A stretch of 37,379 nucleotides of DNA from an uncultured bacterium (GTDB lineage: Bacteria > T1Sed10-126 > CAYPTI01): contig CAYPTI010000004.1 in the NCBI GenBank assembly GCA_964413525.1, positions 1 through 37,379 on the forward strand. Reading direction: 5' to 3'. Position numbers and translations under genes: made by a program. A model generated the notes under the pieces. That model did not search any database and was not told where the DNA came from. It worked only from the letters and a program-made list of their open reading frames with translations. Shown piece by piece: positions 7,823 through 37,379 of this stretch. Every line of letters starts with the position of its first letter. Position 1 is the first letter of the stretch.

Positions 7823-8853
7823 CAACCCAGGGCTCCCGACCGCTCGGCAAGGGTTTCCAGGGTCGTTCGAGCCGCCCCGGAGTGGATGGCCTCCCGGGCC
7901 TGATCGGCTCCTTCTTCCAGGCTGTCAGCTTCCCCGGCAACGTACAGAACCGCGCCGGCGTTGGCCGACACGATGGTCTCCACCGCCGGAGCCGGTTCCC
8001 CGTCCAGGAGCTCCCGGGCGACCGATTCGTTATGTTCCGGATTCCCGCCCCGGATGTCGGCCAGATCGATGGACGAAAGGCCGAAGTCGTCCGGGGTGAG
8101 GGTGCCGGTGGAGAGGGAATCCCCGTCGATTTCGGCGACATGAGTGGGAGCGCTCATGGAGATTTCGTCCATCCCGTCGGTTCCGTGAACCACGAGGGCC
8201 CGTTCCACGTCCAGTTCCCGGAGGGCCGCCGCCAGCGGTTCCACCCATTCTTCCGAAAAGACCCCCAGAACCTGCCGGTCCGCATCCGCCGGGTTGGTCA
8301 ACGGTCCCAGAAGATTAAAGATCGTCCGGACACCGAGGGACTTGCGGGGGCCGATGGCGTGCTTCATGGCCCCGTGATAGGCCGGGGCGAACATGAACCC
8401 CATGCCGGAGGCCCGTATGCAGGCTTCGACGGCATCCGGACCCAGTTCGAGTTTGACCCCGAGAATCTCCAGCAGATCGGCCGAGCCGCAGCGGCTGGAC
8501 ACCGAGCGGTTCCCGTGCTTCGCCACCCGGGCACCGGCCCCGGCGGCCGTGATCGCGGCCAGAGTGGAGACGTTGATGGTTTCCGCTTCGTCCCCGCCGG
8601 TCCCGCAGGTATCCACCAGAGGCCGCAGGGAATCGTCCGGTTTGAGCCGGGTGGCGTGTTTTCGCATGCTGCTGGCGAACCCCGCGATCTCGGTTGACGT
8701 TTCCCGACGGGTCCGCAGGGCAGCCAGAAGCCCCCCGATCTGAGCGGAATCAAGATCTCCGTCCATGATCAGGTCCATCACCGATTGGGACCGCTCAAAG
8801 GAGAGCTTCTCGCCCTCCATGATCGCCTCCAGGACCGTCCGAAAGTTCGTCAT
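7822..8853 (-). CDS. trpD: anthranilate phosphoribosyltransferase
   Basis: Motifs: DTCGTGGD, NVSTLAAITAAGAGARVAKHGNRSVSS, GFMFAPAYHGAMKH, RTIFNLLGPLTNPA. The ATG at 8853 (MTNFRTVLEAI...) forms an ATGA overlap with the trpG stop. The longer track ORF (to 8886) would overlap trpG by 37 nt. Confidence 0.92.
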   Translation of the reverse strand: MTNFRTVLEAIMEGEKLSFERSQSVMDLIMDGDLDSAQIGGLLAALRTRRETSTEIAGFASSMRKHATRLKPDDSLRPLVDTCGTGGDEAETINVSTLAAITAAGAGARVAKHGNRSVSSRCGSADLLEILGVKLELGPDAVEACIRASGMGFMFAPAYHGAMKHAIGPRKSLGVRTIFNLLGPLTNPADADRQVLGVFSEEWVEPLAAALRELDVERALVVHGTDGMDEISMSAPTHVAEIDGDSLSTGTLTPDDFGLSSIDLADIRGGNPEHNESVARELLDGEPAPAVETIVSANAGAVLYVAGEADSLEEGADQAREAIHSGAARTTLETLAERSGALG

Positions 8854-9458
8854 GCGACATCGACCGCCTTGTTTGTTTGATTCCATTGTTCGGCCATGGT
8901 TAAAAAATTGTCCAGCAGCCGGCGTCCGTGTTCAGTCAGGATCGACTCCGGATGAAACTGGACCCCCCACTGGGGCAATTCGCGGTGGCGGAGCCCCATA
9001 ATCTCGTCGTTCTCCGTCCGCGACGTCACGGTCAGAACCTCCGGCAGCGATTCACGTTGTACCACCAGCGAGTGATACCGGGTCGCCACGAACGGATCCG
9101 GCACACCAGCATACAGACCATCGGAACCGTGGTGAACCTCCGAGGTCTTTCCGTGCAGGAGCCGTCTGGCCCCGACGATCGTGCCTCCGTGAACGGACGC
9201 AATGCACTGATGCCCCAGACAAACGCCCAGAGTGGGAAGTCGATGCCCCAGCTCCCGAATGAGGTCGTTGGAAACACCGGCGGTTTCAGGTCGTCCCGGT
9301 CCCGGGCTAATCAGAAGGGCGTCAGGGTCCCGATCGCGGACGTCCCGCACCGCAATTTCGTCGTTCCGGAATACCGCGGGTCGATGAGAAAGTTCCCCGA
9401 GGTACTGCACGAGGTTATAGGTAAAACTATCGTAGTTGTCGATCAACACGACATCCAT
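8850..9458 (-). CDS. trpG: anthranilate synthase component II (class-I glutamine amidotransferase)
   Basis: Motifs: IDNYDSFTYNLVQYL, ISPGPGRP, LGVCLGHQCI (catalytic Cys), GVQFHPES. ATG at 9458 is preferred; the track start at 9461 is TTG. Confidence 0.92.
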   Translation of the reverse strand: MDVVLIDNYDSFTYNLVQYLGELSHRPAVFRNDEIAVRDVRDRDPDALLISPGPGRPETAGVSNDLIRELGHRLPTLGVCLGHQCIASVHGGTIVGARRLLHGKTSEVHHGSDGLYAGVPDPFVATRYHSLVVQRESLPEVLTVTSRTENDEIMGLRHRELPQWGVQFHPESILTEHGRRLLDNFLTMAEQWNQTNKAVDVA

Positions 9459-9530
9459 CAAACCGCCTCACTTCCCTCAAGTCCCCCTCGTTACAGGAGC
9501 CGAACTCCGTCGGGAGAGATGGAACCGTCG

Positions 9531-9557
9531 GGTCGGGGTTTCGGTGAAACCCCGATC
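9531..9557. other. perfect 9-bp stem / 3-nt loop hairpin in the trpE-trpG spacer
   Basis: CGGGGTTTC-GGT-GAAACCCCG lies at 9534-9554 and can be extended by flanking pairs. No U-tract on either strand. Confidence 0.3.
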
Positions 9558-9659
9558 GTGACGAAACTTCTTCCAGGATACGGACAGGCCGATCATGATA
9601 TCAAATCGAGGGAAAAAACGAATTCCCGACAATCCACCAGGAAGAAATTCCGGCCAACG

Positions 9660-11147
9660 TTATTCCAGAAACGGTTCCTCGGCGATGCTGTCCAGGGCCG
9701 TCAACAGGGCCTCGGCCTTGTCGCGGGTTTCGTCATACTCGGAATCCGGATCCGAATCGGACACGATCCCGGCCCCGGCCTGGATGGACACCGTTCCCTC
9801 ATGCGCCACGATGGTGCGCAGCACGATGCAGCTGTCCATGTCGCCCCCGAACCCGATGTAACCGACGGCCCCTCCGTAGGGCCCCCGGCGGTCCGGTTCA
9901 ATCCCCTCGATCAGCTGCATGGCACGGATCTTCGGGGCTCCGGTCACCGTCCCGGCCGGAAAGGTTGCTCGAAAGGCGTCTAAGGCGTTGGTGTCCGAAC
10001 GCAGGGTGCCTTCCACGTTCGAAACCAGGTGCATCACGTGGGAATACCGTTCGATGACGGCCTGCTGGGTAACGGTTACCGTTCCCGCCCGGCAAACCCG
10101 TCCCAGGTCGTTGCGGCCGAGATCCACCAGCATGGTGTGTTCGGCCTGTTCCTTGGCGTCGGAACGAAGTTCATTCGCCAACCGGTTGTCTTCCTCCGGG
10201 GTATCACCCCGTGAACGGGTGCCCGCGATGGGACGCACCCGGACCGTGTCCCCCTGCACCTGAACCATGACTTCCGGCGAGGCTCCCACGAGTTTTAACT
10301 CGTCGAAATCGAGATAAAACATGTACGGGGAGGGATTGATCCCCCGCAACGTCCGGTACATCTGAAACGGATGGTTGGGGTCATTCAGTTCGAATCGCTG
10401 GGACGGAACGGCCTGAAAAATATCCCCCGCCCGAATCCGCTCCTTCAGTCCACAAACGGCCTGCTTGAACGATCCTCGTGAGAAATTGGAGGTGAGTCGA
10501 TCCGAGAGAGGGGTGTCGGGGGATTGAACGGACAGGCGTCGGGGCCGTTCTCGCAGACGAGCCTCCATTCGATCGAACCGCTCCTCCAGTTCATCAACCC
10601 GGTTTGGAAGCGACGTTTCGTCCTCGGAGAACAGATGACCGATCAGGTGGATTTTTCGCCGGAGGTGATCGAACGCGATCAACCGATCGATCAGGTAGAG
10701 CTGAACGTCCGGAAAGGGAGTTCGGCCGTCGGCGGGTTGAACCGGGACGGTGGGTTCGATGAATTGGATGGTTTCGTAACCAAGATACCCCACCAGTCCC
10801 CCGGTGAAGGGAGGCAAATTCGGCGTTCGCGGGTAATTCCAGCCCTCGATGAGGGAGCGGAGGCGATCGATGGGATCGGACCCTTCGGGAACGTGCAGGT
10901 CCCCGGAAACGGTGACCTCCGAACCGGCAACCCTGAGCACGGCCCGGGGGTTGGTTCCGAGGAACGAATACCGTCCGATCCGCCCTCCCTGTTCCACGCT
11001 CTCCAGCAAAAAGCCCGGGTTCTCCCCCTCGGTCAGGTTCAGGTAGCTGGAGACCGGGGTGATGGTGTCGGCCCGGAGAGTCCGGTGGACGGGGACCATG
11101 TCATGGTCCCGTAATTGGTCTTCCAGGTCGTCCAGATCCCGCTGCAC
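9660..11147 (-). CDS. trpE: anthranilate synthase component I
   Basis: 495 aa. Motifs: LLESVEQGGRIGRYSF, IFQAVPSQRF, NPSPYMFYL, GASPEVMV, GTVTGAPKIRAMQLI, RGPYGGAVGY, AGAGIVSDSDP. The GTG start lies 8 nt after the hisIE stop. Confidence 0.93.
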   Translation of the reverse strand: MQRDLDDLEDQLRDHDMVPVHRTLRADTITPVSSYLNLTEGENPGFLLESVEQGGRIGRYSFLGTNPRAVLRVAGSEVTVSGDLHVPEGSDPIDRLRSLIEGWNYPRTPNLPPFTGGLVGYLGYETIQFIEPTVPVQPADGRTPFPDVQLYLIDRLIAFDHLRRKIHLIGHLFSEDETSLPNRVDELEERFDRMEARLRERPRRLSVQSPDTPLSDRLTSNFSRGSFKQAVCGLKERIRAGDIFQAVPSQRFELNDPNHPFQMYRTLRGINPSPYMFYLDFDELKLVGASPEVMVQVQGDTVRVRPIAGTRSRGDTPEEDNRLANELRSDAKEQAEHTMLVDLGRNDLGRVCRAGTVTVTQQAVIERYSHVMHLVSNVEGTLRSDTNALDAFRATFPAGTVTGAPKIRAMQLIEGIEPDRRGPYGGAVGYIGFGGDMDSCIVLRTIVAHEGTVSIQAGAGIVSDSDPDSEYDETRDKAEALLTALDSIAEEPFLE

Positions 11148-18190: not shown

Positions 18191-18982
18191 TCAACGGACG
18201 AGTCGCAGGAAACGGTCCCTCCCGGCCTCGTCCTTCAGGCCTTCAACCTGCGAAAACTCCCCCCCGCGGAGACGGTCCTCCCAGCGTCTCTGAAGGACCG
18301 GGGACAGTTCAAACCAGGCTTCACCGCCCGGTCGCAGGGCCCGCCGGGTTTGCACAAACACCCGACGGTAAAACCGATCGGGAGGGCCGTCCGGATGCAG
18401 TGCGGACGGAGGCTCGTGGAGTTCAACCGATCGATCCAGCCGCGGATCGCCTTGATTAACATAGGGAAGGTTGGCCAGCACCCCGGCCAGCGACTCCGAC
18501 CGAATCGGCTCCAACCCATCCCCCTGAACCAGCAAATAACGGCAATCGATTTGAGCCTGATTGATGCCGGCCACCGAAAGCGGCTCCGCAAACCGATCCA
18601 GGGCAACCACGGGACGGTCCTGGAACGTGGTGAGCAGGGAGGCGACGAACCCGCTTCCGGTCCCGCAATCCAGCAGGGGCCCATCGGGGAGCCGAGGGAG
18701 GGCCTCCTCGACAAACCGCCGGACGAGGGTTTCGGTCTCCGGACGGGGGATCAGAACCCGTTCATCGACGGTCAGGGTGAGTCCGGCCACGTGAACGTGG
18801 CCAAGGATGTATTCCAGCGGTTTTCCTTCCCGGCGTTGGGCCCGGGCTTCCGCCAGGGGTTTCGGACCGAACTCCGTCTCAAGGAAGGGGGGTTCATTGG
18901 ACCCTCGGACGAGGTGGTTCTGCACTTCTCGCCGTTCCCAGGCGGGAACATCATCCAACCAGTCCGACGATGTCATCCTCAT
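18191..18982 (-). CDS. prmC: peptide chain release factor N5-glutamine methyltransferase (HemK/PrmC)
   Basis: 263 aa. Motifs: [19 protein letters not shown], and the SAM motif [12 protein letters not shown]. The catalytic tetrapeptide reads NLPY rather than NPPY. It overlaps the prfA 3' end by 32 nt and sits in the usual position downstream of prfA. Confidence 0.85.
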
Positions 18983-19991
18983 CTTCGAGCCACTCCAGTT
19001 TTTTCAAGCGCTCGGCTTCGGCGAGATCATCAAGAATTCGGTCGAGATCCCCGTCAAGAACAGACTCCAGATCATGCAGGTCGAGGTTGATCCGATGGTC
19101 GGTAACCCGGTTCTGAGGAAAGTTGTAGGTCCGGATCTTCTCGCTCCGATCCCCGCTTCCAACCTGTTCCCGTCGGGTCTCCCGCCGTTCCCTTTCCTGT
19201 TTCTTTTTCTTTCGATCGTACAACCGGGACCGAAGAACCTTCATGGCCCGGGCCCTGTTTTCGTGCTGGGACCGTTCCTCCTGGCAGGAGACCACCAGCC
19301 CGGTGGGTTCGTGTGTGATCCGAACCGCCGAAGCCGTCCGATTCACGTGCTGGCCGCCGGCTCCGCTGGCCCGGAAGGTATCGATCCGGAGGTCCGATTC
19401 GTTCACCTCGACATCGATATCACGGGCTTCCGGAAGCACGGCCACCGTGGCGGCCGACGTATGAATCCGGCCACCGGACTCGGTTTCCGGGACGCGCTGA
19501 ACCCGATGAGTCCCGCTTTCGAACTGAAGCCTGCCGTAGGCTCCTTTTCCCTCGACCAGAGCGTTGATGCTCTTAAGGCCGCCCTTCGGGGATTCGGAAC
19601 GGTCGAGAGGTTTGACGGTCCAGCTCTGCTGTTCGGCGTACCTCGTGTACATGCGGAAAAGATCGGCGGCAAACAGGGCGGCTTCATCCCCGCCCGTGCC
19701 GGCCCGGATCTCAAGGATCACGTTCCGTTCCCGATCCGGTTCCCGGGGAAGCACTCCCTGTTTGATGGATTCCTTTAACTCCTCAAGGCGGCGGCTCAAC
19801 CGGTCGAGGTCTTCCCGGACCAGTTCCTGCATGGATTCTTCGGCTTCCTCCAGCAGACTGCGGCTGTCCTCCAGTTCCTCGAGGGTTTCCCGATAGCGTC
19901 GATAATCGTCGACAACGGGCTTCAGGCGGGCGTACTCCCGGGAAAGCTCTTCGAAGTCCTCGTCCGGGTCCAGGTCATCCGGCCGCTGCAT
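18951..19991 (-). CDS. prfA: peptide chain release factor 1 (coordinates to the first ATG; the true start is probably the CTG at 20063)
   Basis: Motifs: [61 protein letters not shown] (GGQ), [14 protein letters not shown]. The in-frame sequence upstream of the ATG encodes a further 24 RF1-like residues with no ATG/GTG/TTG (see findings). Confidence 0.95.
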
Positions 19992-20710: not shown

Positions 20711-22981
20711 TCAGGAGAAGTAAGCAAGCACTTTTTCGGTAAAGCTTCGGTCCACCGTCCGGCGGTCCACGTAATCGTCGGAAATCAGGTCCAGAAACCG
20801 GCTGGGCTGCTGCCGGGTGATCTCCCTGTCTACGGAACGCTCCCGAGCGCAGGTAAGGTAGAGTTCGTCCATGGCCCGAGTAATTCCCCGGTAGAACAAC
20901 CGGCGTTCCCGCTCCAGCCGATCGTATTCTCCCGATCGGGGTGATCGGCGAGGACAAATTCCCTCCTCCAGGCCGACGAACAATACAACGGGAAATTCCC
21001 GGTCGGACAGGGCAAACAGGCTCAACAGCTGCACCTCATCGTCCGACCGAGCTGAGCCGGACTGAGCTTCCCATTCGCGACGCCGGGCGAGCCGAACCAG
21101 ATCCTCCACCCCCCGGGACCCGTCAAACCGAGCTTCCGTTCGAATCCACGATTGGCAGTTCGAAAAATTGAGTTCACGAACGGACTGACCGGTTTCCTCG
21201 TACATCGAACGGATGGACGGAACCAGCTCCGCGGGGTGAGCCCCCCGCCGGAGGTCCCGATCCATCTCCCGGAGGCGATCGAAACAACGATCCAGTTGTT
21301 GAACGGTTGATGATTGAAATCGTTCCCAGGTCGTCCGTCGGAGTTCCTCTTCCTCAAGCAACCGAACCGGATTATAAACGTGTTCGATAAGGGCCTGCTC
21401 CGTGGCGTCCAGGATGCCCGGCTCGCCCCCCAGCGCCGTCAGGAGGGCCTCGTTCCACTCCGGAAGATTGTTGCGGACCGCCTCAGGGGCGTCGGTCACC
21501 CGGCCCGAGGAATCAAATTGAAGCTCCTCGGACCGAAACCGGGCAAGGGCTACAAGTACCTGAAAGACCGCGAGGACCGCTTCGGTCGAGGGCAGCGAAA
21601 AGAAGTCTCTTCCCATCCCGGCTTCCTGGACGGGGATACCCTGTTCCTTCAGGGTTTCCTCCAGGGGTTCTCGCAGATCACCGGACCGAAACAGCACCGC
21701 GAAGTCCCCGTAGCCATAACCATCCCTGGCGAGGCGCTCGATGGTGTGGCCGATGAATTCCCGTTCCTCCCGCTCGTCCCGGGACTCAAACACGGCAATG
21801 TTGTCCCCGTATTCAACGCCACCGTCTTCGGTCAGCCGACCGGGCTTGAGTTCGTCGACCTCCGAACCGCTCTCCGCCATCACGTCGTTTGCGGCCAGTA
21901 CAATCATCCCCCGGGACCGGTGATTCACGTCGATCGTCATGGTACTGGCCCCGGAAAAAACTTCCTTGAACCCGGACCGGTCCTCATCCGTCGTTCCGGA
22001 GGGTTCAAACTGGTGGTGATCCCCGAAGGCGGTCAGCTGTCCCTTCTCCCCCACGAGGCTCCTGATCAACTGAACCTGGGCGTTGTTCAGGTCGTACCAT
22101 TCATCAACCAGGAGGTGAGAAAAACGGTCGCGGAGATGCCGGCTCACCGGCTCGTCGGAGCGCATTAACTGCACCGTGATTTCGATCAGATCGTCAAAAT
22201 CCTGGACCCGGTTGGCCCGCTTTTCCTCCTGATAGGCTCCGTAGACCCGGGCCGCCTGTTCGTCCAGCTTGTGGTCGACGGTTTCAAGGGCCTTCTCCGG
22301 CGGGATCAGGTCGTGCCTGTACTCATTGATCCGATCCCTAACCTCGTGGCGCTGTGGAATATCGATGTCCAGCCGGTCCATGATCCGGGAAACCATGTCC
22401 CTTCGATCGGAAGGGTTCAGCAGGGAGATCCCTCTGACGTAGGCGTCGTCGAATCGCTCGACGAGGGTTCGGTCCTCCCCCGGAAGGGGTCGTTCCAGCA
22501 GCTGAAGGCAGGCCGAATACACGCTGGTGATCCAGCCCGTCTCGGGAAGCCGATTGACGATTCCCCGGACCACCATACCGGTTTCGGTCGAAAGATTTTC
22601 CGCCCCGGCCAGGAGAAGCTCCTCAACCCGGTTCTGGAGACTCGAAGCAGCCCGGCCGTTTGCGGCCAGCACAAGAATTCGGTCCAGAGGAACCCCGGAG
22701 AGGATCAGAAAAACAATTCGCCGACCGAGCAGAACCGTCTTCCCGGTCCCGGGTCCTCCTCGGACCAGGAACGACTCCTCTCCCGGTTCATGGAGGAGCC
22801 CCCTCAACTGTTCCCCGTCCAGAGGGGGAGGACCGCAAACCTGCCTCACGAGCAGACCCGCCAGGTCCGGATCGTCGAGCCCCTGAAGAAGTTCGGTGAA
22901 TCGATCCCTGAGGTCCCGGTTGTCAAGTTGATCGAGGTAGGTCTCCAACCGATCACGACAGGGGGGAGCGACGTACTTCAC
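20711..22981 (-). CDS. UvrD/PcrA/Rep-like SF1 DNA helicase, divergent motifs
   Basis: 756 aa with a GTG start overlapping the upstream stop (GTGA). Motifs: Q-like LDGEQLRGLL; motif I GGPGTGKT; Ia LAANGRAASSL; II LLVDEWYDLN; III AFGDHHQ; IV VNHRSRG; V SLFALSDREFPVVLFVGLEEGICP; VI RERRLFYRGITRAMDELYL. Confidence 0.85.
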   Translation of the reverse strand: MKYVAPPCRDRLETYLDQLDNRDLRDRFTELLQGLDDPDLAGLLVRQVCGPPPLDGEQLRGLLHEPGEESFLVRGGPGTGKTVLLGRRIVFLILSGVPLDRILVLAANGRAASSLQNRVEELLLAGAENLSTETGMVVRGIVNRLPETGWITSVYSACLQLLERPLPGEDRTLVERFDDAYVRGISLLNPSDRRDMVSRIMDRLDIDIPQRHEVRDRINEYRHDLIPPEKALETVDHKLDEQAARVYGAYQEEKRANRVQDFDDLIEITVQLMRSDEPVSRHLRDRFSHLLVDEWYDLNNAQVQLIRSLVGEKGQLTAFGDHHQFEPSGTTDEDRSGFKEVFSGASTMTIDVNHRSRGMIVLAANDVMAESGSEVDELKPGRLTEDGGVEYGDNIAVFESRDEREEREFIGHTIERLARDGYGYGDFAVLFRSGDLREPLEETLKEQGIPVQEAGMGRDFFSLPSTEAVLAVFQVLVALARFRSEELQFDSSGRVTDAPEAVRNNLPEWNEALLTALGGEPGILDATEQALIEHVYNPVRLLEEEELRRTTWERFQSSTVQQLDRCFDRLREMDRDLRRGAHPAELVPSIRSMYEETGQSVRELNFSNCQSWIRTEARFDGSRGVEDLVRLARRREWEAQSGSARSDDEVQLLSLFALSDREFPVVLFVGLEEGICPRRSPRSGEYDRLERERRLFYRGITRAMDELYLTCARERSVDREITRQQPSRFLDLISDDYVDRRTVDRSFTEKVLAYFS

Positions 22982-23496
22982 GAACTTCCCGGACCCCCGC
23001 CGGTCGCCGGCGTCTGTTCCCGATGTTCGTACCAGAAGTGATAGAATTCCGTCAGTTTCTCCATCAATTCCTGTTCCGCCGCCGGATCCAGCCGGAGGGG
23101 GACGCGGCCCTCGGGTGAATCGTCCTCCAGATAGATGAGTTCGCCCCGTTTGATCGGTTCAGCAAAATCGTGTTTAAGGATCCAGAGATACATCAACAGC
23201 TGCATGCGGTGGCCCTCAAAGGAACGTTCGTTGCGTCGTCCCGACTTCAGTTCGAGGACCACGGGCTCGCTGCTGTCGTCCCGGACGATAAAATCCGGGG
23301 CGCCCGAGGCGACGATCGGGGGATGCTCCAGCCGCCGGGTGAACAACCGGGACCCATCGTCCTGGTATAGTTTTTCGGGATACCCAAACAGGTGCCCGGC
23401 GGGGTCCTCGTCGAGTTCCTCGAGCACGACGTTCTGAACCACCGCGATCAGAACCACAATCAGTAACCCGAACGCGGTCAACAGAACGGGGTTCAC
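22978..23496 (-). CDS. membrane-anchored PD-(D/E)XK nuclease of RecB/Cas4 type (no Fe-S cysteines)
   Basis: 172 aa with a GTG start overlapping the upstream stop (GTGA). N-terminal hydrophobic helix NPVLLTAFGLLIVVLIAVV. Core motifs: APDFIV (D), VVLELKSG (E-x-K), RMQLLMYLWIL (QxxxY). Confidence 0.7.
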   Translation of the reverse strand: MNPVLLTAFGLLIVVLIAVVQNVVLEELDEDPAGHLFGYPEKLYQDDGSRLFTRRLEHPPIVASGAPDFIVRDDSSEPVVLELKSGRRNERSFEGHRMQLLMYLWILKHDFAEPIKRGELIYLEDDSPEGRVPLRLDPAAEQELMEKLTEFYHFWYEHREQTPATGGGPGSS

Positions 23497-29472: not shown

Positions 29473-29663
29473 TGCACCGGATCATCTCGTTCACGCGTGG
29501 GATTCTCTACCGAAACCTCGGAAAAATACCGCTGGTTGGACTCGATGATCTCGGCAAACCGGTAGTCCGGGTTCAGGAGGTATACAATGGCTCCGATCAG
29601 GAAGGCCCCGACCACCATGACGAGCAACCATTTGACGTTGCCTCGCTGTTCATCCTCACCCAT
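29469..29663 (-). CDS. small single-pass membrane protein, unknown function
   Basis: 64 aa with one TM helix (KWLLVMVVGAFLIGAIVYLL). Its ATG overlaps the ndk stop by 8 nt, and its TGA overlaps the comEC GTG. Coding status rests on this coupling and on the absence of alternatives. Confidence 0.5.
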   Translation of the reverse strand: MGEDEQRGNVKWLLVMVVGAFLIGAIVYLLNPDYRFAEIIESNQRYFSEVSVENPTRERDDPVQ

Positions 29664-30075
29664 CGATCAAATCACTCTCGGAGAAGAAAAAGCCGATCTC
29701 ACGCTCGGCGCTTTCCGCCGAGTCGGCTCCGTGAATGGAATTCTCGGTGATGCTGCTGGCAAATTCAGCCCGAATGGTGCCGGGAGCCGCATCCTCGGGA
29801 TCGGTGGCCCCCATAATGGTTCGGAGCCTCCGGACGGCGTCCTCCCCCTCCACGACCCCGAGTACTACGCTTCCGGAGGTAATGTACTCAATCAACTCGT
29901 CAAAAAACGGTTTGGATCGATGTTCCCCGTAAAACCGACGGGCCTGGGCGTCACTGATGCGAGTCTTCTCAAGACAGACGATGGACAGTCCATCGGACTC
30001 GATTCGGCTCAGGATCTCACCAACGAGATCCCGTTCAACCGCGTCGGGTTTGATCATCGTGAACGTTCGTTCCAT
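29656..30075 (-). CDS. ndk: nucleoside diphosphate kinase
   Basis: The ATG at 30075 gives MERTFTMIKPDAVERDLVGEILSRIE...FYGEHRSKPFFDELIEYITSG...GATDP..AAPGTIRAEFA....NSIHGADS (active-site His). 139 aa. The track ORF's 32-aa N-terminal extension was rejected. Confidence 0.95.
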   Translation of the reverse strand: MERTFTMIKPDAVERDLVGEILSRIESDGLSIVCLEKTRISDAQARRFYGEHRSKPFFDELIEYITSGSVVLGVVEGEDAVRRLRTIMGATDPEDAAPGTIRAEFASSITENSIHGADSAESAEREIGFFFSESDLIDG

Positions 30076-30304
30076 GATTCTCGCTCCCTCGAAAAACAAA
30101 GTAATGGGTTCGATTAGCAGCCACTGTTGTCCCCCGACCCGGGATCCCGCCTGACCCGTCCGGCCACCCAACTCAGAAATCGTCGAACAAGGGTAATGGG
30201 CTGTCCGGGGGAGGACAATGTCCCCCCCGAAGAAACGGCACGACTGAGCTGGTTTTCCCGGGATGGGGGCGACCCGTCACCTCAAGGAGGATCCTGCGCC
30301 AACA

Positions 30305-31504
30305 TTACCCGCTCTCGCCCAGTTCCGATTCACCCTGAGCGATCTGAAAAGCATTATAAAGTAAGTCCCCGGTCATCTGAGCAACCAGACGCAGTTTCAG
30401 TTTGTCCGCGTTGCCCAGCTCCTCCCCGGTTTCTTTTTCCGTCGCCCGGATAACCCCGATGGTTTTCCCCCGTGAACGAATGGCCGCCGCCACCCCGGCT
30501 CCCTTCCGGGGACGGTCGATGATGTTCGCCTGGCCCAGTTCAGCAACCGTTCCGACCTCACCCGAACCGATGTCGACCGTGAGGTTCTGAAGCCGGTCGC
30601 GCTCCATCCACTGGTCCTCCTCCAGTCCCATCTGGCCGACAAGCTGATCCGGGTTGTCGGTGGAAACCAGAAACACCATGGTCTGGCGGACCTGAAGCAT
30701 GTTGTAGACCGAATTTACCATGTACTTCAGAAGCGCTTCCGGATCGAGGGTTTCCCCCACCCGCTTGGCGTAATCAATTAATTCAAAGTACTCATCCGGA
30801 GTCAGCGGTCCGGTCGACGTCTCCTCCTTCGCCCGTTCAAGCTTTTCCTCGTATTGGTTCGTGATTTCCGACCGGGCCAGGCTGATCCGGTTCGTGATCA
30901 GATCCTCCCACCGTCGCTGCAGGAACAGGACCACCAGGACGGCGATCACCAGGAGAACGGCGGTACCCAGGGCAAGTTGATTGACGGTGGAATACCAGTG
31001 CCGCCAGAGAAACTCCCGGTCAATCCCGATCATCAAGCCCCCGTAGACGGTACCGTCGGCGGTAACGGGCAGGACGATCTCCCGAACGTCGAGGTCCTCC
31101 CCCTGAACATCCTCACGGGACTCGATCACAAGCCCCTCCGTATCGACAAACCGTTCCTCCTCCAGCATGGACCGATCGCCGGGGGAAACGTCTTCGTGGA
31201 CCGAACTGAGGACGAAGTTCCCCCGATCGTCCAGCACGGCCATGTACGCAATTCCAAAGTCTTCTCGACGGGTGACAAGCTGATCGGTGGCTGTATTTAA
31301 GGTTGTAAAATTGGCCGAAAGGAAGGGTTCAAACAGGGAGTAGGCAATCATCTCACTGACGTCATCTACCGTGTCGGAGGCTCGCTGGCTCGCGGTCTGA
31401 TAGCTGAAGAAATAGGCTGTAAAAGCTAAGAGAAGGATGAGTGCCACAACGAATGCCAGAATGGAATTTCGCACCTGGGAAGCGAGATCCGACCCATCGT
31501 CCAC
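30305..31504 (-). CDS. membrane sensor-like protein: TM, Cache/PDC-like periplasmic domain, TM, coiled linker, GAF domain, no output domain
   Basis: 399 aa with a GTG start 38 nt after the secretin stop. TM1: ILAFVVALILLLAFTAYFF. Extracytoplasmic segment IAYMAVLDDRGNFVLSSV...LPVTADGTVYGGLMIGI is typical of Cache-like sensors. TM2: LALGTAVLLVIAVLVVLFL. The C-terminal GAF-like block is LDPEALLKYMVNSVYNMLQVRQTMVFLV...VAAAIRSRGKTIGVIRA. I saw no HisKA, GGDEF or HTH motifs. Confidence 0.65.
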   Translation of the reverse strand: MDDGSDLASQVRNSILAFVVALILLLAFTAYFFSYQTASQRASDTVDDVSEMIAYSLFEPFLSANFTTLNTATDQLVTRREDFGIAYMAVLDDRGNFVLSSVHEDVSPGDRSMLEEERFVDTEGLVIESREDVQGEDLDVREIVLPVTADGTVYGGLMIGIDREFLWRHWYSTVNQLALGTAVLLVIAVLVVLFLQRRWEDLITNRISLARSEITNQYEEKLERAKEETSTGPLTPDEYFELIDYAKRVGETLDPEALLKYMVNSVYNMLQVRQTMVFLVSTDNPDQLVGQMGLEEDQWMERDRLQNLTVDIGSGEVGTVAELGQANIIDRPRKGAGVAAAIRSRGKTIGVIRATEKETGEELGNADKLKLRLVAQMTGDLLYNAFQIAQGESELGESG

Positions 31505-31542: not shown

Positions 31543-34500
31543 TCAACGATTCGATTCAGTCTGGGTATCCCGTTCCACCGTTACGTTCACGTCCCGTTCA
31601 ATCTCTCCGTTATCGCTTGTATCAGACTCCAGTCCCTCCTCGACGTTGGCGGCCGTCCGGGGAGTAATGTCTTCCCCGTCGTTCGCCGAGGACGCCTCGG
31701 CACGGTCACCGGAGGGATCGTAGTTCTCGCCCGACGGGACGGTTTCGGCCTGCGTTCGCGATTCACCGGAATCCAGAACCATGACTTCCTGCAACACCGA
31801 ATCGATGTAATCGGAATCTACGCCCCGGTCGATCAGAAGGTTCCGGACCACGTCAAAGTCCTCAAACCGAATTCTCAAATCTCGCTCGTGAGAGAGGTCG
31901 GTGGCGATTTGAGCGTCAATGTGACGGACCCGGCTAAGCTGCCGGGGAGTGGCCGAGTTCACGGGGATCGACAGTTCGACCCGATCCATGATCTGCTCCA
32001 AAACGAGCGGGTCCACGCCGGGCAACCTGAGCAGATCGCTGAGGCTCGTGAAGGGTCCGGCGTTTCGTCGGTAATCATCGGCCGCCGCCGCCAGCTGCGC
32101 CGGGTCGGAGGCGTCGCTCAGGCTGAACAGCCGCTCCAGTTGTTGGAAGGAATCGGTGTTCACGTTGACCGACAGTCCGCTGCTGAACTGAGCCTCCTCG
32201 CCGATCCGTTCCTCGGCCAGTCGATCGACTTCCTCCGCCTCCTCCATGACGTGGGGGGTGAGAAAGACGACCAGTTCGTTCTGGACAACATCCTCCGAGT
32301 AGCTGCTGAACGCGTGTCCCAGCACAGGGATGTGACGCAGGAAGGGAACCCCGGTTTCCTGGATCTCGACGTCGTCCTGGATCAACCCGCCGACCACGAT
32401 CGTTTGGCCGTCCTCCACGTACAGTTTGGACTGACTGGAGCGACTTTCGGTGGTGAGGGTTTCCTCCTGGGGACTAACGAATATTTCGTTGATGATGTTC
32501 AGGTTCAGCAACACGTCCCGGCTCTTGGTGATGGTAGGAGAAATTTCCAGCACGGTCTCCGCCACCACCTCGGTCAGCGTGGTGGTCACCACTCCTCCTT
32601 CGGAGACTTCCGTCTCCTCGGCGAACCGGGTCTCCTCCAGCCGAATCACGCCCTGCTCATTGTTCAGGGTGGAGATCTGCGGCCGGGCCACGATTTCGCC
32701 GTCAAGGTCTTCTTCCAGGAAGTCAAGGATGACCTGGAGGTCCTCCTGCTGGAAAAGACCGGTGAAGACTCGATCCGCAAACTGCGGGAGCGCAGGATCC
32801 GCTGATACGTCGGGACCGCCGGGGCTAGGACCGGTGGGGGGATCCGAACCAAACTCAACCCGCAAGTCCTCATTCAGGTAGTTCCAGAAGGGGTTGAACT
32901 CGAATCCCTCCTCCAGGTCATATTCGGCCAGTACCCCTTCGACGTAGACCTGCTTGGCCCGGACGTCAAATTGCTTGATCAGGTCCCTCACCATCGACCG
33001 GTTGTTCCTCGGCGTGGCAAACACCACCCGGTTCAGGTCCGGATCGGCGGTGAGTGAGACGTTAATGTTCAGATCCTCCACCACCTCGGACGTCCGGGTG
33101 ACGAGATCCTCGGGCCCGTCGGTCGGACCTTCCGGCGACGGAAGGGCTCCGCGTTCGGCGTCGTCGTCCAGCAGGCCCGAGATCACGTCAACCACGTCGT
33201 GGGCTCTCCGATAGTTCAACTCCACGTGACCGATCGTGTACCCCGACTTATCAATTTGCTCCAGAAATTGCCGGGTCTCGTCCTGACGGTTTGAAGGCAC
33301 CAGGAGGGAAATCCGGTCGGGGGTGACGTGAAGCAAAGTCGCGTACTGGAGTTCGTCCAGCTGGTCCTCAAGATCCTCGGCGTCCAGGTTGGTCGGAAAA
33401 TACGTGATGACGGAATGATCGAAAAAGGCGTTGCTGTCGAGTTTTTGAATGATCTCGCGCAGCATCGACGCATCGGAGGGCTGCAGGGAAAAGACCGCCC
33501 GCAGTTCGTCCGAGTATACGACACGGGGAAGAGCCCGTTCCCGTTCGAGGGTGTCGTCGATGTTCTGGAAGTACTCCTCCAGTTCGCCGACCAGGGTGGA
33601 CACGTCCACGAACTGGGGGGAGTACACCACGATCTCCCGACCCGACTGATCGATCTCGGTGGAGTCGAGCCGGGACATGATCTCGCGGAACTCGTCGATT
33701 TCCTCTTTCGTCGACGAACGCAGGAGCAGAAGGTTCCGTTCCGGGATCGCCGTCTCCACGTCCACGCCCGGGAACCGTCCGACAAACGAGTTGACCCGTT
33801 CCACGCCGAGAACCTGGGCCGGATACCACTCCCAGTAGTAGTCCTCCAGCTCAACGTAGGAGTCCTCGATCTCCTGGATGATCTCCCGGGCGAAGGAACG
33901 GAAGTTGCTGGGACCGATCAGCATGATCGTGTCGGTTTCTTCAAGGATGATGGCATTCATCTGGGTAACCACTTCTTCGAGGTTGGCGGCATCGGTTCCT
34001 TCGGTCTCTTCCTGGGGAGCAAAGAAGAAGACTTCCTCAGTCTCATCAACGTCCTCCGCCACCCCGATGATCTGGTTGAGCTTCTCCAGCACCACCGACG
34101 GATCGGCTCGTTCGATTTCAATCAGGTCATACGAGAAACTTGAGAGATCGGACGAATCGATCTGGTTCAGCTGGTTGAGGGCCGACTCAAGGGCCTCCTG
34201 TTCCGGGGACGATAGAAGGAAGGCGTCAAGGTATTCAATCGTGCTGAACGTCTGGACGTTGCCCATCCGGTTGATCAGCGATTGGGTTTGTTCAAACGGA
34301 ATGTTTTCCGCCTGATACCACTCAAACTTCTGCCGGTCCATGTAATCGAGGCCCATCTCCTGAATCCGTTCGATCATGGCTTCGGCCGTGTCCAGAAGGT
34401 CGGGAGACCCGAAGATCAGAATTTGCTGCAGTTCGGGGATGGCGATGATCTGCCCTCGTTCAAGGAGCTGTTCAATATTGACCTGCCGTTCCTCCTGGAT

Positions 34501-36840
34501 GATCTGACGGATTTCGTCCGGGTCGGGGTCGGTAAATGTGAGATCCCCGATATTCACGCCGGTGGTAATGTCCATCCCCAGGATTCGGTTCACCTGGGCG
34601 GCGATCTGTTCGGCGTCGAAGCCCTCCATGTCAATAAACCGGAAGTTCTCCTGCAGCCGGCCCGGCTGATCCATGATCTCCACCAGCTCGACCACTCGTT
34701 CGACCATCGCGGTTTCTCCGTACACAACGATCTCATTGGTCCGGGGGTGGCTGATAATTCGTCCTTGTTCCCCGAGGGGAAGATCCGACCGCAGACGGTC
34801 CGCGAGATCGTCGTTGTTGATCGAAAGAGCCTCGTGCTCGAGTTCAATAACCCGGTATTCAAACCCCTCGTACACCCCCCGCTGGATGGCTTCCTCCCGA
34901 GCGACCACCGTAACGACGTCCTCGTCCATGACCCTCGCAAATCCCTGGGTTTCCAGGATGGTGTCCATGGCCCGAAGCGGCGTGACGTCCTCGAGGTGAA
35001 CGGTGACCGAGCGCTGTTCGTCATCGGCCTCCAATTCCTGAAGGACCAGGTTGATGTTGGAAATCTCCGCCAGGGTTCGAAGAACGTCCGAAAGGGGCGC
35101 GTCCTGAAGAGAGACGCTGATGACGTTCGGCCGGCCGAAGATCGTGAAGGTGGTGGAGGGTTCGCCCTCGATTTCCAGCAGGGACGCCCGAACCTCGTTG
35201 ACCTCCCGATCCGGGGCAATTCGGTAGACATCCACTTCCACCCGACCGTCGTCGTTTGTTTCCTGGCGCCGGCTGAGGCCCGGCTGGACCTCGTTTACGT
35301 CCAGAAAAGCGCCCCGGGTCAGAGATTTAAAGGTGACCATGACGTCGGGGACCGGGTTCCCGAACCGGTCCTGAACTTCAACCATCATTGGATTCGGAGG
35401 CCGCTCGCCGAACAGGGTCTCCTGCCGATCTCCGGCGACCGTCTGGATGTCAACCGGTTCGGCCGCCTCTACCTCCAGCCGGTAGTTCACCAGGAGATCG
35501 TATTCTTCCACGGAAGCGACGATTTCAACCGGTCCGGAGGTTTCCTTCGATCGGGCATGGAACCGAACGCGACCGTCTTCATCGGTTCGTAACTCCAGCG
35601 ATTCCCCCTGAAATTCATCCGGCGATTCACCCAGTTCTACGTCTCCATGACGAACGGAAACCTCCACCCGTTCGTCGTCCAGCGGTTCCCCGTCCTCGTC
35701 CACGAATTCGGCGATCATGGGATCGGAGGTCTCCCGGGGGATCCCGAGCGACTGACCATGGCCTTCGACCCGCTGAAGCTGGTAATACAGATCGGGGTGA
35801 ACCTGCCGGAAGATGTCCTCAATCTCCGGATCCTCGTCCGCCCCGGGGAAGATCTCCTCCACGTCGAAGATGTCGATAACGACACGATTACCCGGGGTGT
35901 CACGGTAAATTTGAAAATTGTCATGCCACTGTTCCAGGTCCAGGACCACGCGGGTCGTATTAATGGGATCCACCCGGTACTGACTGTGGCGCACCCGGAT
36001 GACGTCCTTCAGCTCGATGGGAAGGGGGGGGTCGGGAAGAGCATTGAGGGCGTTCGGGATGTCAATTACCAGCATGGCCGGATCAAAAATTTCCGACACC
36101 ACGTAATCAAGGGAGCGCGATCCCCGGATCGAGATCCGGACTCGGTCGGGATACTCCCGGGCTTCCACTCCGTACACGGCTCGGGTCCGACCCTCCGGTT
36201 GATCGTAATCCGTCCGAACATGACGAATTACTTCGGAGGGTTCGGCCTGGATCTCAGGGGGTTCCTTCGGCGCTTCCTGATCGTCCACGGTCGCGAACGG
36301 AGAATCCGGACGAACCTCCGCCGGATTCTGGACGGACCCCAATTGAATGTCGTTGGGATCCTCCCGATCCGCCAGCTCCCCAAGCTCCTCTTCGGCTTCT
36401 TCAGCCGCCTCATCCTCGGGAAGGTCAACCAGCTCCTCAAGGGTCTCACGAAGCTGTTGAGCCTGGGTATGGTCGGGATCCTCATCCAGAGCCCGACGAA
36501 CCCGATCGAGAGCCAGATCGTATTCTTCGTCAATAAAGTGGTTGACTGCCTCGGAGTAAAAAACCTCGGCCGAAGTCCCTTCCTGGGCTTGTTGCGTTTC
36601 CTGCGCCTGAATGGCCGTTGGATGGAAAAAGAACGTTAAACAGAACAAACTCGCGAGTAGCCCCACGAGCAAAAACAGGGACGAATATGAACCCCCGGGC
36701 GTTGTACGGTGGAATAATACCAATCCGATGGCTCCCTTCGGCTTCGTCAATGGTGCCTTCACCGATACGGAATCAGCCCCGGTGGAGGCGTGTTTCCCGG
36801 CCGCTTGTGCGGCTCGTGTGGTCATCACAATTGTCGCCAT
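31543..36840 (-). CDS. pilQ: giant type IV pilus / competence secretin (PilQ-like) with TPR-like, AMIN, Ig-like, STN/N0 and about 8 ring domains, a secretin core and C-terminal ComEA-like HhH modules
   Basis: 1765-aa ORF. Hydrophobic signal-like segment LFLLVGLLASLFCLTFFF..AIQAQ. AMIN-like: RVRISIRGSRSLDYVVSEIFDPAMLVIDIPNA...TRVVLDL. Two Big_1-like beta domains: MMVEVQDRFGNPVPDVMVTFK...DDGRVEVDV. N0/STN: ISVSLQDAPLSDVLRTLAEISNINLVL. Repeated Secretin_N-like units: ...PRTNEIVVYGE...VELVEIMD. Secretin core: IVARPQISTLNNEQGVI...GQTIVVGGLIQDDVEIQETGVPFLRHIPVLGHAF...ELVVFLTPHVM. Start uncertain: a TTG at codon 40 behind AAGGGAG is an alternative. Confidence 0.85.
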   Translation of the reverse strand: MATIVMTTRAAQAAGKHASTGADSVSVKAPLTKPKGAIGLVLFHRTTPGGSYSSLFLLVGLLASLFCLTFFFHPTAIQAQETQQAQEGTSAEVFYSEAVNHFIDEEYDLALDRVRRALDEDPDHTQAQQLRETLEELVDLPEDEAAEEAEEELGELADREDPNDIQLGSVQNPAEVRPDSPFATVDDQEAPKEPPEIQAEPSEVIRHVRTDYDQPEGRTRAVYGVEAREYPDRVRISIRGSRSLDYVVSEIFDPAMLVIDIPNALNALPDPPLPIELKDVIRVRHSQYRVDPINTTRVVLDLEQWHDNFQIYRDTPGNRVVIDIFDVEEIFPGADEDPEIEDIFRQVHPDLYYQLQRVEGHGQSLGIPRETSDPMIAEFVDEDGEPLDDERVEVSVRHGDVELGESPDEFQGESLELRTDEDGRVRFHARSKETSGPVEIVASVEEYDLLVNYRLEVEAAEPVDIQTVAGDRQETLFGERPPNPMMVEVQDRFGNPVPDVMVTFKSLTRGAFLDVNEVQPGLSRRQETNDDGRVEVDVYRIAPDREVNEVRASLLEIEGEPSTTFTIFGRPNVISVSLQDAPLSDVLRTLAEISNINLVLQELEADDEQRSVTVHLEDVTPLRAMDTILETQGFARVMDEDVVTVVAREEAIQRGVYEGFEYRVIELEHEALSINNDDLADRLRSDLPLGEQGRIISHPRTNEIVVYGETAMVERVVELVEIMDQPGRLQENFRFIDMEGFDAEQIAAQVNRILGMDITTGVNIGDLTFTDPDPDEIRQIIQEERQVNIEQLLERGQIIAIPELQQILIFGSPDLLDTAEAMIERIQEMGLDYMDRQKFEWYQAENIPFEQTQSLINRMGNVQTFSTIEYLDAFLLSSPEQEALESALNQLNQIDSSDLSSFSYDLIEIERADPSVVLEKLNQIIGVAEDVDETEEVFFFAPQEETEGTDAANLEEVVTQMNAIILEETDTIMLIGPSNFRSFAREIIQEIEDSYVELEDYYWEWYPAQVLGVERVNSFVGRFPGVDVETAIPERNLLLLRSSTKEEIDEFREIMSRLDSTEIDQSGREIVVYSPQFVDVSTLVGELEEYFQNIDDTLERERALPRVVYSDELRAVFSLQPSDASMLREIIQKLDSNAFFDHSVITYFPTNLDAEDLEDQLDELQYATLLHVTPDRISLLVPSNRQDETRQFLEQIDKSGYTIGHVELNYRRAHDVVDVISGLLDDDAERGALPSPEGPTDGPEDLVTRTSEVVEDLNINVSLTADPDLNRVVFATPRNNRSMVRDLIKQFDVRAKQVYVEGVLAEYDLEEGFEFNPFWNYLNEDLRVEFGSDPPTGPSPGGPDVSADPALPQFADRVFTGLFQQEDLQVILDFLEEDLDGEIVARPQISTLNNEQGVIRLEETRFAEETEVSEGGVVTTTLTEVVAETVLEISPTITKSRDVLLNLNIINEIFVSPQEETLTTESRSSQSKLYVEDGQTIVVGGLIQDDVEIQETGVPFLRHIPVLGHAFSSYSEDVVQNELVVFLTPHVMEEAEEVDRLAEERIGEEAQFSSGLSVNVNTDSFQQLERLFSLSDASDPAQLAAAADDYRRNAGPFTSLSDLLRLPGVDPLVLEQIMDRVELSIPVNSATPRQLSRVRHIDAQIATDLSHERDLRIRFEDFDVVRNLLIDRGVDSDYIDSVLQEVMVLDSGESRTQAETVPSGENYDPSGDRAEASSANDGEDITPRTAANVEEGLESDTSDNGEIERDVNVTVERDTQTESNR

Positions 36841-37155
36841 TCCAGTTGTTTGGCTGGTCCATCATGAATCGGTCTTCAAATTGAAGGGGTTTCATCATAA
36901 TCTCTGCACCTGATTAGATCGAGACCCCTCCGTGGCAATGTCCGTGTGAACATCCTGACTAAAAATAGAGAAGTTTGACAAAAAACACAATACACGCTCC
37001 AAATTCGAGAATCTTTTCAGTTGACCACCCCGCCTCGACCCGTTTCGGTTTCCGAACAGGCAGGGGAGGAAAACGTCCGGAAGAACCGATCACGGGGTTC
37101 CCGTTGCTTGCGGACGGGAGGTGAATGGGGAAGGCTCGGGTTTAAGTCCAATCAA

Positions 37156-37379
37156 CTACTGAAGTCGAATTCCTTCCTCGATCCGTTGCCGAACCCGATC
37201 GGTCTGGAATTGAAACAACGTTGTCTTGTAATCCGGGTGCGACAGCCAGACCCCGGTGTCACTGATGGTTTCGGCCCGGATGTCGGATTCTCCAACGAAT
37301 TCTCCCACCCCGACCCGATAGGTTTCCCCCGAGGATTCTTCCCGGACCAGAGCCTGGCGGACGTCCTCGGCCCCGAAGA
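37156..37379 (-). CDS. PilP-like pilus assembly protein, C-terminal fragment; the gene starts beyond the right edge
   Basis: Open minus-strand frame entering from the right edge, ending at TAG 37156-37158. ...ALVREESSGETYRVGVGEFVGESDIRAETISDTGVWLSHPDYKTTLFQFQ resembles the PilP C-terminal beta-domain pattern (..ALV....G..hRV.vGdylG...g.V..I....i.l). It sits immediately upstream of the secretin, as in pilMNOPQ operons. Confidence 0.5.
   Translation of the reverse strand, partial: FGAEDVRQALVREESSGETYRVGVGEFVGESDIRAETISDTGVWLSHPDYKTTLFQFQTDRVRQRIEEGIRLQ

Follow-up and report, generated by a model that had tools for sequence, protein, structure and literature searches.

The stretch of DNA analysed here (the window, all 37,379 nucleotides of contig CAYPTI010000004.1 from an uncultured bacterium) carries on its minus strand, at 31543..36840, a gene whose product is beyond doubt a secretin, and we consider it probable that this protein is the PilQ-type outer-membrane secretin of a type IV pilus or competence DNA-uptake machine, with an extended conduit and a tethered DNA receptor. 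Pfam Secretin (PF00263) matched the product with 113.3 bits, passing the superfamily gathering threshold (GA) of 27.5 and confirming the beta-barrel core that an earlier first-pass annotation of this DNA had proposed. The assignment to a type IV pilus or competence system is based on the AMIN domain of the protein together with the pilM, pilO, pilP-like and competence genes of its locus. Features are listed in Table 1, and residue numbers throughout refer to the 1765-aa open reading frame (ORF).

Nothing in the locus is more informative than the linkage to comEC and comEA. On the same strand, 3' of the secretin gene, the window encodes a 399-aa protein, ndk, a small ORF, comEC, comEA, and a metallo-beta-lactamase (MBL) protein, keeping the gene order that relatives show downstream of their secretins. 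In the eight related loci, this order reads pilM(N), pilO, a pilP-like gene, a gene for a 1010-aa immunoglobulin (Ig)-like protein, the secretin gene, the gene for the 400-aa protein, ndk, the small ORF, comEC, comEA, and the MBL protein gene, and a histidine kinase and a sigma-54-dependent response regulator head the operon. PilM_2, PilO, and PilP-like genes lie upstream in every related locus that reaches upstream (L001, L003/L082, L004, and L083), while in L007, L008, and L084 only PilM and PilO were seen there. PilM of L001 passes TIGR01175 (134.2 bits; cutoff 133), and ComEC of the window is above the TIGR00360 cutoff with 70 bits. Our contig ends within the PilP-like gene, leaving its last 65 codons visible. 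A location downstream of pilM/N/O/P, as for pilQ, is thus seen through the relatives, with the PilP-like 3' end in the window itself. The first-pass annotation had not mentioned comEC and comEA just downstream of the secretin.

Sequence comparison shows homology between the C-terminal module of the secretin and the domain with which ComEA binds DNA. Pfam HHH_3 (PF12836) matched residues 1557-1621 above threshold (37.7 bits, GA 27), and two stretches were found when the C-terminal segment was scanned alone (46.9 bits). BLASTP against the ComEA encoded in the same window aligned two segments with 34% identity (E 4e-9), and the second unit is conserved across the family. Both the helix-hairpin-helix (HhH) region and the acidic tail noted at first pass are therefore present, the former refined to two tandem ComEA-type units. 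Among PDB chains, the HhH repeats of EEPD1 were matched at E 1e-6 and ComEA more weakly. Given that HHH_3 passes its threshold and that the secretin scored below cutoff with TIGR00426 (15.9 bits; cutoff 53.1) and TIGR01259 (24 bits; cutoff 152), the secretin carries a ComEA domain and is not a ComEA orthologue. In one relative, P0017, the acidic tail is replaced by a Pro/Ala linker of ~300 aa followed by an extra HhH module, and this tethered module fits a "fishing line" role in DNA capture.

Several observations weigh against a DNA-uptake PilQ, and they bear on two rival readings. In the core, the NCBIfam PilQ model TIGR02515 scored 148.9 bits, below its cutoff of 284.35, and the GspD model TIGR02517 scored 219.7 bits, above the PilQ score yet below its own cutoff of 351.35. 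Similarly, phmmer with the core against PDB placed GspD (5wq7, E 6e-24) ahead of PilQ (3jc8, E 6e-18), and whether the protein is of PilQ or GspD type cannot be read from the core sequence. It could accordingly be proposed that this is a GspD-like secretin of a type II secretion system exporting folded proteins, given that GspD is the top NCBIfam model, that GspD chains are the top PDB sequence matches, and that the best Foldseek matches of the N region are N0-N2 of XcpQ and GspD. N-domain folds are, however, common to all secretins, and the Foldseek order is therefore non-discriminating. The GspD score is under its cutoff, an AMIN domain is present, and the orthologues have PilM_2 and PilO genes upstream instead of GspC/L/M. 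No gspC/L/M or pseudopilin genes, nor other type II secretion genes, lie next to the secretin in the window and the eight related loci, which carry PilM/PilO-type and competence genes. We therefore regard a type II secretion role as very unlikely. Of the first-pass label "PilQ-type", the part that stands is the part carried by AMIN, by the PilP-like fragment upstream, and by the pilM-pilO-pilP-like genes of the orthologues, whereas the core falls below the PilQ cutoff and scores higher with GspD. Genes for pilin, PilB, PilC, PilT, and prepilin peptidase are not in the 37-kb window, which is the whole contig; a T2SSE-family ATPase is encoded nearby in L084.

The remaining points concern the HhH module and the repeats. 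The window copy departs from its relatives at some hairpin positions, with LFSLSD, PGVD, and HID in place of GLS, GI, and NIG. Four of the seven full-length family members gave weak matches to T2SSK (GspK), and HhH-like domains occur also in GspK, a pseudopilin that does not bind DNA. The operon also has its own gene for a separate ComEA, leaving no obvious need for a fused copy. By analogy to the S-domains of GspD, a secretin's C-terminal end is expected on the periplasmic side, outside the wall of the barrel, and a route by which DNA inside a closed nine-ring conduit would reach the HhH units is not evident. Finally, AlphaFold2 (AF2) confidence is low for R4, the fourth of the N-domain repeats described below, for which profile similarity is the evidence. 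The first three of these observations could also be explained if the secretin belonged to a type IV pilus whose main use is motility or adhesion, in which case the HhH modules would have a structural or non-uptake role, as a substitute for the S-domain/pilotin contact, in GspK-like binding of pilus-tip proteins, or with some other ligand, and the linkage to comEC and comEA would reflect shared regulation only. HhH motifs of Pasteurella ComE1 are reported to bind fibronectin as well (PMC2601033). On the other hand, the best matches of the module are of HHH_3 and ComEA type, including the organism's own ComEA, and the operon that tightly and consistently joins the secretin to comEC, comEA, and the MBL protein in eight loci points to shared function, making a motility or adhesion role unlikely in our view.

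We favour the DNA-uptake PilQ, whose N0 domain and N-type repeats lie between its N-terminal domains and its core. The N0/STN domain proposed at first pass scored 22.1 bits with Pfam STN at residues 609-647 in the whole-protein scan (GA 28.4) and 32.1 bits, above GA, when the segment was scanned alone. AF2 modelled it as beta-alpha-beta-beta-alpha-beta-beta with an N0-type fold at 576-647, and its best Foldseek matches were N0-N1-N2 of XcpQ and GspD (E 4e-10). We divided the following region, residues 658-1295, into eight units (R1-R8), and eight N-type repeats after N0 is a fair count. This agrees with the roughly eight ring-building repeats that had been placed here, Pfam supporting three of them and profile hidden Markov models (HMMs), hhalign, and AF2 the rest. 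Self-BLASTP of the secretin detected no internal repeats, because these are too divergent, and profile methods were needed. On the whole protein, Pfam Secretin_N reached 73.6 bits in three stretches (GA 28.2) and recognised R1, R2, and R8 only, leaving the other five to family profiles and structure prediction.

A family-specific N-domain HMM picked up R1 (E 2e-16), R2 (E 7e-12), R3, R4 (E 2e-7), R6, R7, and R8, with R2 and R4 recovered even though they were outside its seed, while the generic N-domain HMM match to R5 was weak. Profile-profile comparison interlinked R1, R2, R6, R7, and R8 and, separately, R3 with R5 and R2 with R4. The hhalign probabilities were 98% for R6 and R7, 80% for R7 and R1, 97% for R5 and R3 (E 3e-11, 61 columns, full length), and 71% for R4 and R2 (91 columns). 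The AF2 model of residues 566-1300, built from a 14-sequence alignment, had a mean predicted local distance difference test score (pLDDT) of 63; it was confident for N0, R1, R2, R6, R7, and R8 and of low confidence for R3 and R4 and for R5 in its first half. R1 was modelled as beta-alpha-beta-beta-alpha, R2 and R8 had the same order with an insert after the first helix, and the second half of R5 was a confident beta-beta-alpha. R3, which had no Pfam match when scanned, gave a clean beta-alpha-beta-beta-alpha structure with pLDDT 92.3 when folded alone from a 12-sequence subtype alignment. Foldseek with this model placed secretin N domains on top (XcpQ, TMq 0.70, rmsd 2.1 A; then InvG, PilQ, and HofQ), with weak E-values, as expected at 65 residues. 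For the N region, all 47 Foldseek matches below E 1e-3 were secretin periplasmic domains (XcpQ N0-N2, GspD, InvG, and PilQ). The repeats thus model as N-domain folds in R1, R2, R3, R6, R7, R8, and the second half of R5, with R4 as the exception. R4 is the least certain repeat and appears to be an old duplicate of R2; R4-R5 most plausibly arose as a pair by an ancient tandem duplication of R2-R3 (together 33643..34653, residues 730-1066). Given that R4-R5 duplicate R2-R3, that R4-R5 are missing from relatives P0007, P0008, and P0010, and that other repeats were gained elsewhere, this secretin family changes its count of N domains through the duplication of units.

The N-terminal part was also largely as first described, and earlier coordinates for the AMIN, Ig, STN, repeat, and core regions were within a few codons of ours. 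A hydrophobic signal segment is followed by a cleavage-like site, AIQA|QE (judged by eye, with no prediction tool), and by a pair of helices resembling a tetratricopeptide repeat (TPR), for which a weak TPR-type Pfam match spans residues 98-136 in the whole-protein scan and the motif A..Y..G....A...L..vL...PD...A..L is kept in 7/7 family members. The acidic linker that comes next, recognised by composition, differs in length and sequence between members. Pfam AMIN scored 30.3 bits (GA 20.5) and was found in all seven members, with RHSQYR.DP invariant across the family. Big_1 scored 32.7 bits, just below its GA of 34.9, and is likewise present in every member (best E 8e-11). The two Ig-like domains are mutually homologous (hhalign 98.5%, E 1.8e-15, 100 columns), and the claim of two Big_1-type Ig domains is therefore correct.

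Given the size of this gene, we considered whether it could be an artefact of frameshift-fused genes or of a misassembled repeat region, a possibility listed only because repeat-rich metagenomic genes are error-prone and for which we found no supporting evidence. As stated at first pass, the ORF runs uninterrupted over its 1765 codons, with zero internal stops. The secretin is collinear end to end with six relatives of 1612-2126 aa that were assembled independently from different samples, its N repeats share only ~15-30% protein identity, and GC is even along 31543..36840. A DNA-level repeat search found no long direct or tandem repeats in the gene, making assembly collapse or expansion unlikely. 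Fusion by frameshift is not supported by these results, and an artefact is so improbable as to be nearly negligible. The true start is probably the TTG at 36723, which would yield a protein of 1726 aa: an AAGGGAG Shine-Dalgarno sequence was seen by inspection 8 nt 5' of this codon, the catalogue gene caller's product has this same length, and all relatives have short N-termini before the hydrophobic segment, comparable to the short basic N-terminus that this start leaves.

This secretin belongs to a rare family. Exhaustive HMMER searches with residues 566-1765 retrieved 24,661 secretins at E<=1e-3 and only 21 at E<=1e-30, and the family amounts to ~20 clusters among 1.84 billion representatives, from metagenome-assembled genomes (MAGs). 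The best relatives, besides fragments, were P0007 (1612 aa, seven N-domain HMM matches), P0008 (1651 aa, seven), P0010 (1613 aa, seven, an eighth match being spurious), P0009 (1925 aa, 12), P0011 (1727 aa, nine), and P0017 (2126 aa, eight). These six align from the signal peptide through the HhH region with 22-34% identity, and Secretin, Secretin_N, HHH_3, Big_1, and AMIN were found in 7/7 full-length members. In GTDB, an alignment-based scan found the family in seven species representatives; scanning genome contigs with the single secretin protein gave no matches. A word-indexed homologue search returned almost nothing with the single protein and missed the family even with the family alignment, making the exhaustive HMMER search necessary. 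We saw no HhH fusion outside the family among the outside matches scanned. One apparent match extending into the HhH region, Kiritimatiellae L068, was rejected, as its C-terminal tail reads as non-HhH (by reading, with no scan). JGI automatic annotation calls one family fragment "secretin / DNA uptake protein ComE-like". At first pass, common and already described orthologues of similar length had been named as refuting evidence. Orthologues of such length exist, but the family is rare and we found no description of it. Unusual size also held in part, given that the protein is more than twice as long as a typical secretin and that larger secretins exist, up to 4404 aa.

The secretin is strongly acidic (D+E 20.8%, K 1.0%, isoelectric point 4.2). 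This is not specific to the gene, since the cytoplasmic enzymes TrpA-E, AroA, PrfA, and UvrD of the window are likewise acidic and lysine-poor (isoelectric points 4.6-5.7, lysine 1-4%), and the source organism looks like a salt-in halophile. P0007 and P0008 are lysine-rich and not acidic, indicating that the family spans halophiles and non-halophiles.

Table 1. Features of the secretin and of its surroundings in the window.
Feature	Residues	Position	Strand	Evidence or remark
Probable start (TTG) and signal peptide	40-79	36604..36723	-	hydrophobic core SLFLLVGLLASLFCLTFFF
Single TPR-like helical hairpin	92-125	36466..36567	-	weak Pfam Fis1_TPR_C, E 0.0015
Acidic low-complexity linker	126-220	36181..36465	-	residue composition
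AMIN domain	~221-325	35866..36180	-	Pfam AMIN, residues 225-312
Ig-like domain 1	~355-457	35470..35778	-	weak MG4 match, residues 378-449
Ig-like domain 2, Big_1 type	~458-568	35137..35469	-	Pfam Big_1, residues 483-542
N0/STN domain	572-655	34876..35127	-	STN, AF2, Foldseek
N-domain repeat R1	658-729	34654..34869	-	Pfam Secretin_N 39.3 bits
N-domain repeat R2, helical insertion of ~40 aa	730-836	34333..34653	-	Secretin_N E 4e-4
N-domain repeat R3, divergent subtype	837-900	34141..34332	-	single-domain fold
Probable N-domain repeat R4, acidic insertion	901-999	33844..34140	-	profile similarity
N-domain repeat R5	1000-1066	33643..33843	-	hhalign to R3
N-domain repeat R6	1067-1140	33421..33642	-	AF2 beta-alpha-beta-beta-alpha, pLDDT 72-83
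N-domain repeat R7	1141-1199	33244..33420	-	AF2 beta-alpha-beta-beta-alpha, confident
N-domain repeat R8, N3-like, abuts core, 30-aa insertion	1200-1295	32956..33243	-	Secretin_N 39.4 bits
Secretin beta-barrel core	1296-1535	32236..32955	-	Pfam Secretin, residues 1375-1532
ComEA-type HhH unit 1	1557-1622	31975..32172	-	Pfam HHH_3
ComEA-type HhH unit 2	1625-1692	31765..31968	-	second HHH_3 stretch and second BLASTP segment against ComEA
Acidic low-complexity C-terminal tail	1693-1765	31546..31764	-	residue composition; variable in family
PilP-like upstream gene, 3' end		37180..37374	-	tblastn 31% identity, E 4e-8, to C-terminus of a 214-aa PilP-like protein
Conserved 399-aa membrane protein		30305..31504	-	38-bp gap after secretin; two transmembrane segments
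Nucleoside diphosphate kinase (ndk)		29656..30171	-	Pfam NDK 181 bits; synteny conserved
Small ORF, ~46-53 aa, between ndk and comEC		29493..29630	-	50% identical to 53-aa ORF in L001
ComEC/Rec2 inner-membrane DNA channel, 1004 aa		26458..29472	-	Pfam Competence 150 bits, DUF4131
Separate ComEA, 233 aa		25344..26045	-	HHH_3 105 bits; TIGR00426 95 bits (cutoff 53)
Stand-alone MBL protein, 353 aa		24264..25325	-	TIGR00361 positions 442-663, E 2e-15
Housekeeping genes, trp		5140..11147		
Housekeeping gene, prfA		18951..19991		

Further observations concern the genes around the secretin. Between the pilP-like gene and the secretin, 7/8 related loci carry a gene for an Ig-like protein of ~1010-1055 aa (L001, 6955-9984), and in the eighth (L005/L006 type) the contig stops short of this position upstream. 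No homologue of this protein occurs anywhere in the 37-kb window, which has a 330-bp spacer (36841..37170) where relatives carry the gene. Within the spacer, TGGAGCGTGTATTGT at 36987..37001 on the minus strand is a weak, partial match to a sigma-54 -24/-12 element (TGGCAC-N5-TTGC), with GT for GC at -12. The 399-aa protein, which matched no Pfam or NCBIfam family, combines a periplasmic domain with a GAF-like cytoplasmic domain (weak GAF match to PDE5, E 0.0035), is matched by orthologues with ~40% identity in the corresponding place of at least L001, L003, L005, and L006, and could be a so far undescribed part of the machine or a regulator of it. The small ORF was also called at the same place in L082 and L083. 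The 353-aa protein resembles the C-terminal MBL domain of ComEC, keeps its position after comEA in relatives, and is also homologous to an MBL protein encoded at 297..1409; it is a candidate for an extra nuclease acting on the non-transported DNA strand. Just downstream of the competence genes, the genes for a UvrD-type helicase (756 aa) and a Cas4-like PD-(D/E)XK nuclease (172 aa) share 4 bp (the pair at 20711..23496, minus strand), and a UvrD-type gene is also found downstream in L003/L082. The two may form a DNA-processing pair linked to uptake. In three related loci (L001 2981-5623, L082 2865-5462, L083 2563-5580), PilM is a fusion of 865-1005 aa joining PilM_2 to a long C-terminal part with weak T2SSL similarity; among NCBIfam families, this fusion protein is matched best by the Akkermansia Amuc_1101 PilM-like family. 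A weak match to the Amuc_1098 family was seen for the secretin, and kinship with the poorly understood Amuc_1098/Amuc_1101 pilus-like complex is hinted at by these sequence matches.

Secretins form pores of 12-15 subunits, and their N domains stack as rings. We hypothesize that 12-15 copies of this protein would likewise form an outer-membrane pore, beneath which N0 and R1-R8 would stack into about nine periplasmic rings, giving a conduit perhaps one third to one half longer than that of Thermus (nine rings versus six) that would guide a pilus or pseudopilus and incoming double-stranded DNA across a wide or unusual envelope. Attachment to peptidoglycan would come from AMIN, with the Ig domains as spacers. 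Two HhH modules per subunit, on flexible acidic linkers just beneath the outer membrane, could bind incoming double-stranded DNA without sequence preference and serve as a local, salt-tolerant ratchet or receptor from which DNA would go first to free ComEA and next to ComEC. ComEA binds incoming double-stranded DNA in the periplasm and helps pull it inward (PMC3879209, PMC8578077), and ComEA-type HhH domains are reported to bind DNA still at high salt (PMC4777378). We infer both DNA binding and ring stacking here rather than demonstrate them. A bolder version, which we find doubtful, is a dedicated, self-contained DNA-import tunnel whose approximately nine rings form a closed conduit toward ComEC across an envelope of unusual width and whose crown of ~24-30 tethered ComEA modules acts as a salt-proof ratchet; the stand-alone MBL protein and the conserved GAF-like membrane protein of 400 aa would then be new machine parts. 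If true, this would be a "Rosetta-stone" fusion, making secretin and ComEA ratchet one physical unit in transformation.

All parts of this protein are known, and it is their combination that we did not find described: AMIN, two Ig domains, N0, 7-12 N domains, the core, and a ComEA module, within a pilMNOP-pilQ-comEC-comEA operon. We found no publication describing either this family or a fusion of PilQ with ComEA, and absence from the literature searched is not proof. It is likely a PilQ conduit of record length. In natural transformation, the relative weight of pilus retraction and of the ComEA ratchet, and the site of hand-over, are still argued. The ComEA module fused to PilQ and the shared operon are genetic evidence that secretin and periplasmic DNA receptor act side by side, and structural studies of the DNA hand-over step could use the fusion as a construct provided by nature. 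If the predicted eight-plus-one rings are correct, they extend the range of characterised secretin conduits beyond the six of Thermus, and this architecture hints at an unusual envelope in a lineage that is probably salt-in halophilic. Variation of N-domain number from 7 to 12 within the family might offer a natural ruler for periplasm width. The fusion is useful for the natural-transformation field and is not a new principle, its key functional claims being ones that we infer.

Compared with known systems, great length and many N domains are not unique, given that far longer secretins occur in the same catalogue: P0147 (4404 aa, 37 N-domain matches), P0156 (3095 aa, 21), and P0002 of Phycisphaerae (>2866 aa, 19). 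These uncharacterised giant secretins, from MAGs of Planctomycetota and others, share with ours the many Secretin_N-like repeats before one secretin core. They differ in that their repeats are canonical Secretin_N, that P0002 and P0156 lack AMIN and HHH_3 in precomputed Pfam lists, and that sources giving them a name call them type II secretion protein D. The PilQ of proteobacterial type IVa pili (Pseudomonas 6ve2, Vibrio cholerae 6w6m, Neisseria 4av2) has the same order of AMIN, N0, N domain, and secretin core, is encoded downstream of pilMNOP, and in Vibrio and Neisseria serves a competence pilus. In contrast to the window protein, it has one or two N domains after N0, measures 570-760 residues, and has no Ig or C-terminal DNA-binding domain; the cores share ~25-30% identity, ours being under the TIGR02515 cutoff. 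ComEA of Vibrio cholerae, Thermus, and Bacillus (PDB 2duy, 8dss) has a DNA-binding domain homologous to the C-terminal 140 residues of the secretin. Known ComEA proteins are periplasmic, free or anchored in the inner membrane, whereas here the module is covalently attached to an outer-membrane secretin, with a normal ComEA also encoded nearby.

A further close parallel is PilQ of Thermus thermophilus, a protein of 757 aa known from cryo-EM, whose six stacked rings, N0-N5, span 350 A and serve both pili and DNA uptake (PMC5745081). The analogy drawn at first pass survives, with ring stacking proposed on that analogy: both proteins have N0 and several beta-alpha-beta-beta-alpha N domains, and both are encoded after pilMNO-type genes. 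In the window protein eight N domains follow N0, where five or more mark the Thermus type. Thermus PilQ lacks AMIN, Ig domains, and an HhH module, and its comEA/comEC operon lies elsewhere, while the window secretin, 2.3 times longer, adds to N0 and its eight N domains one AMIN, two Ig domains, and a ComEA-type module, and has comEC and comEA in the same gene cluster.

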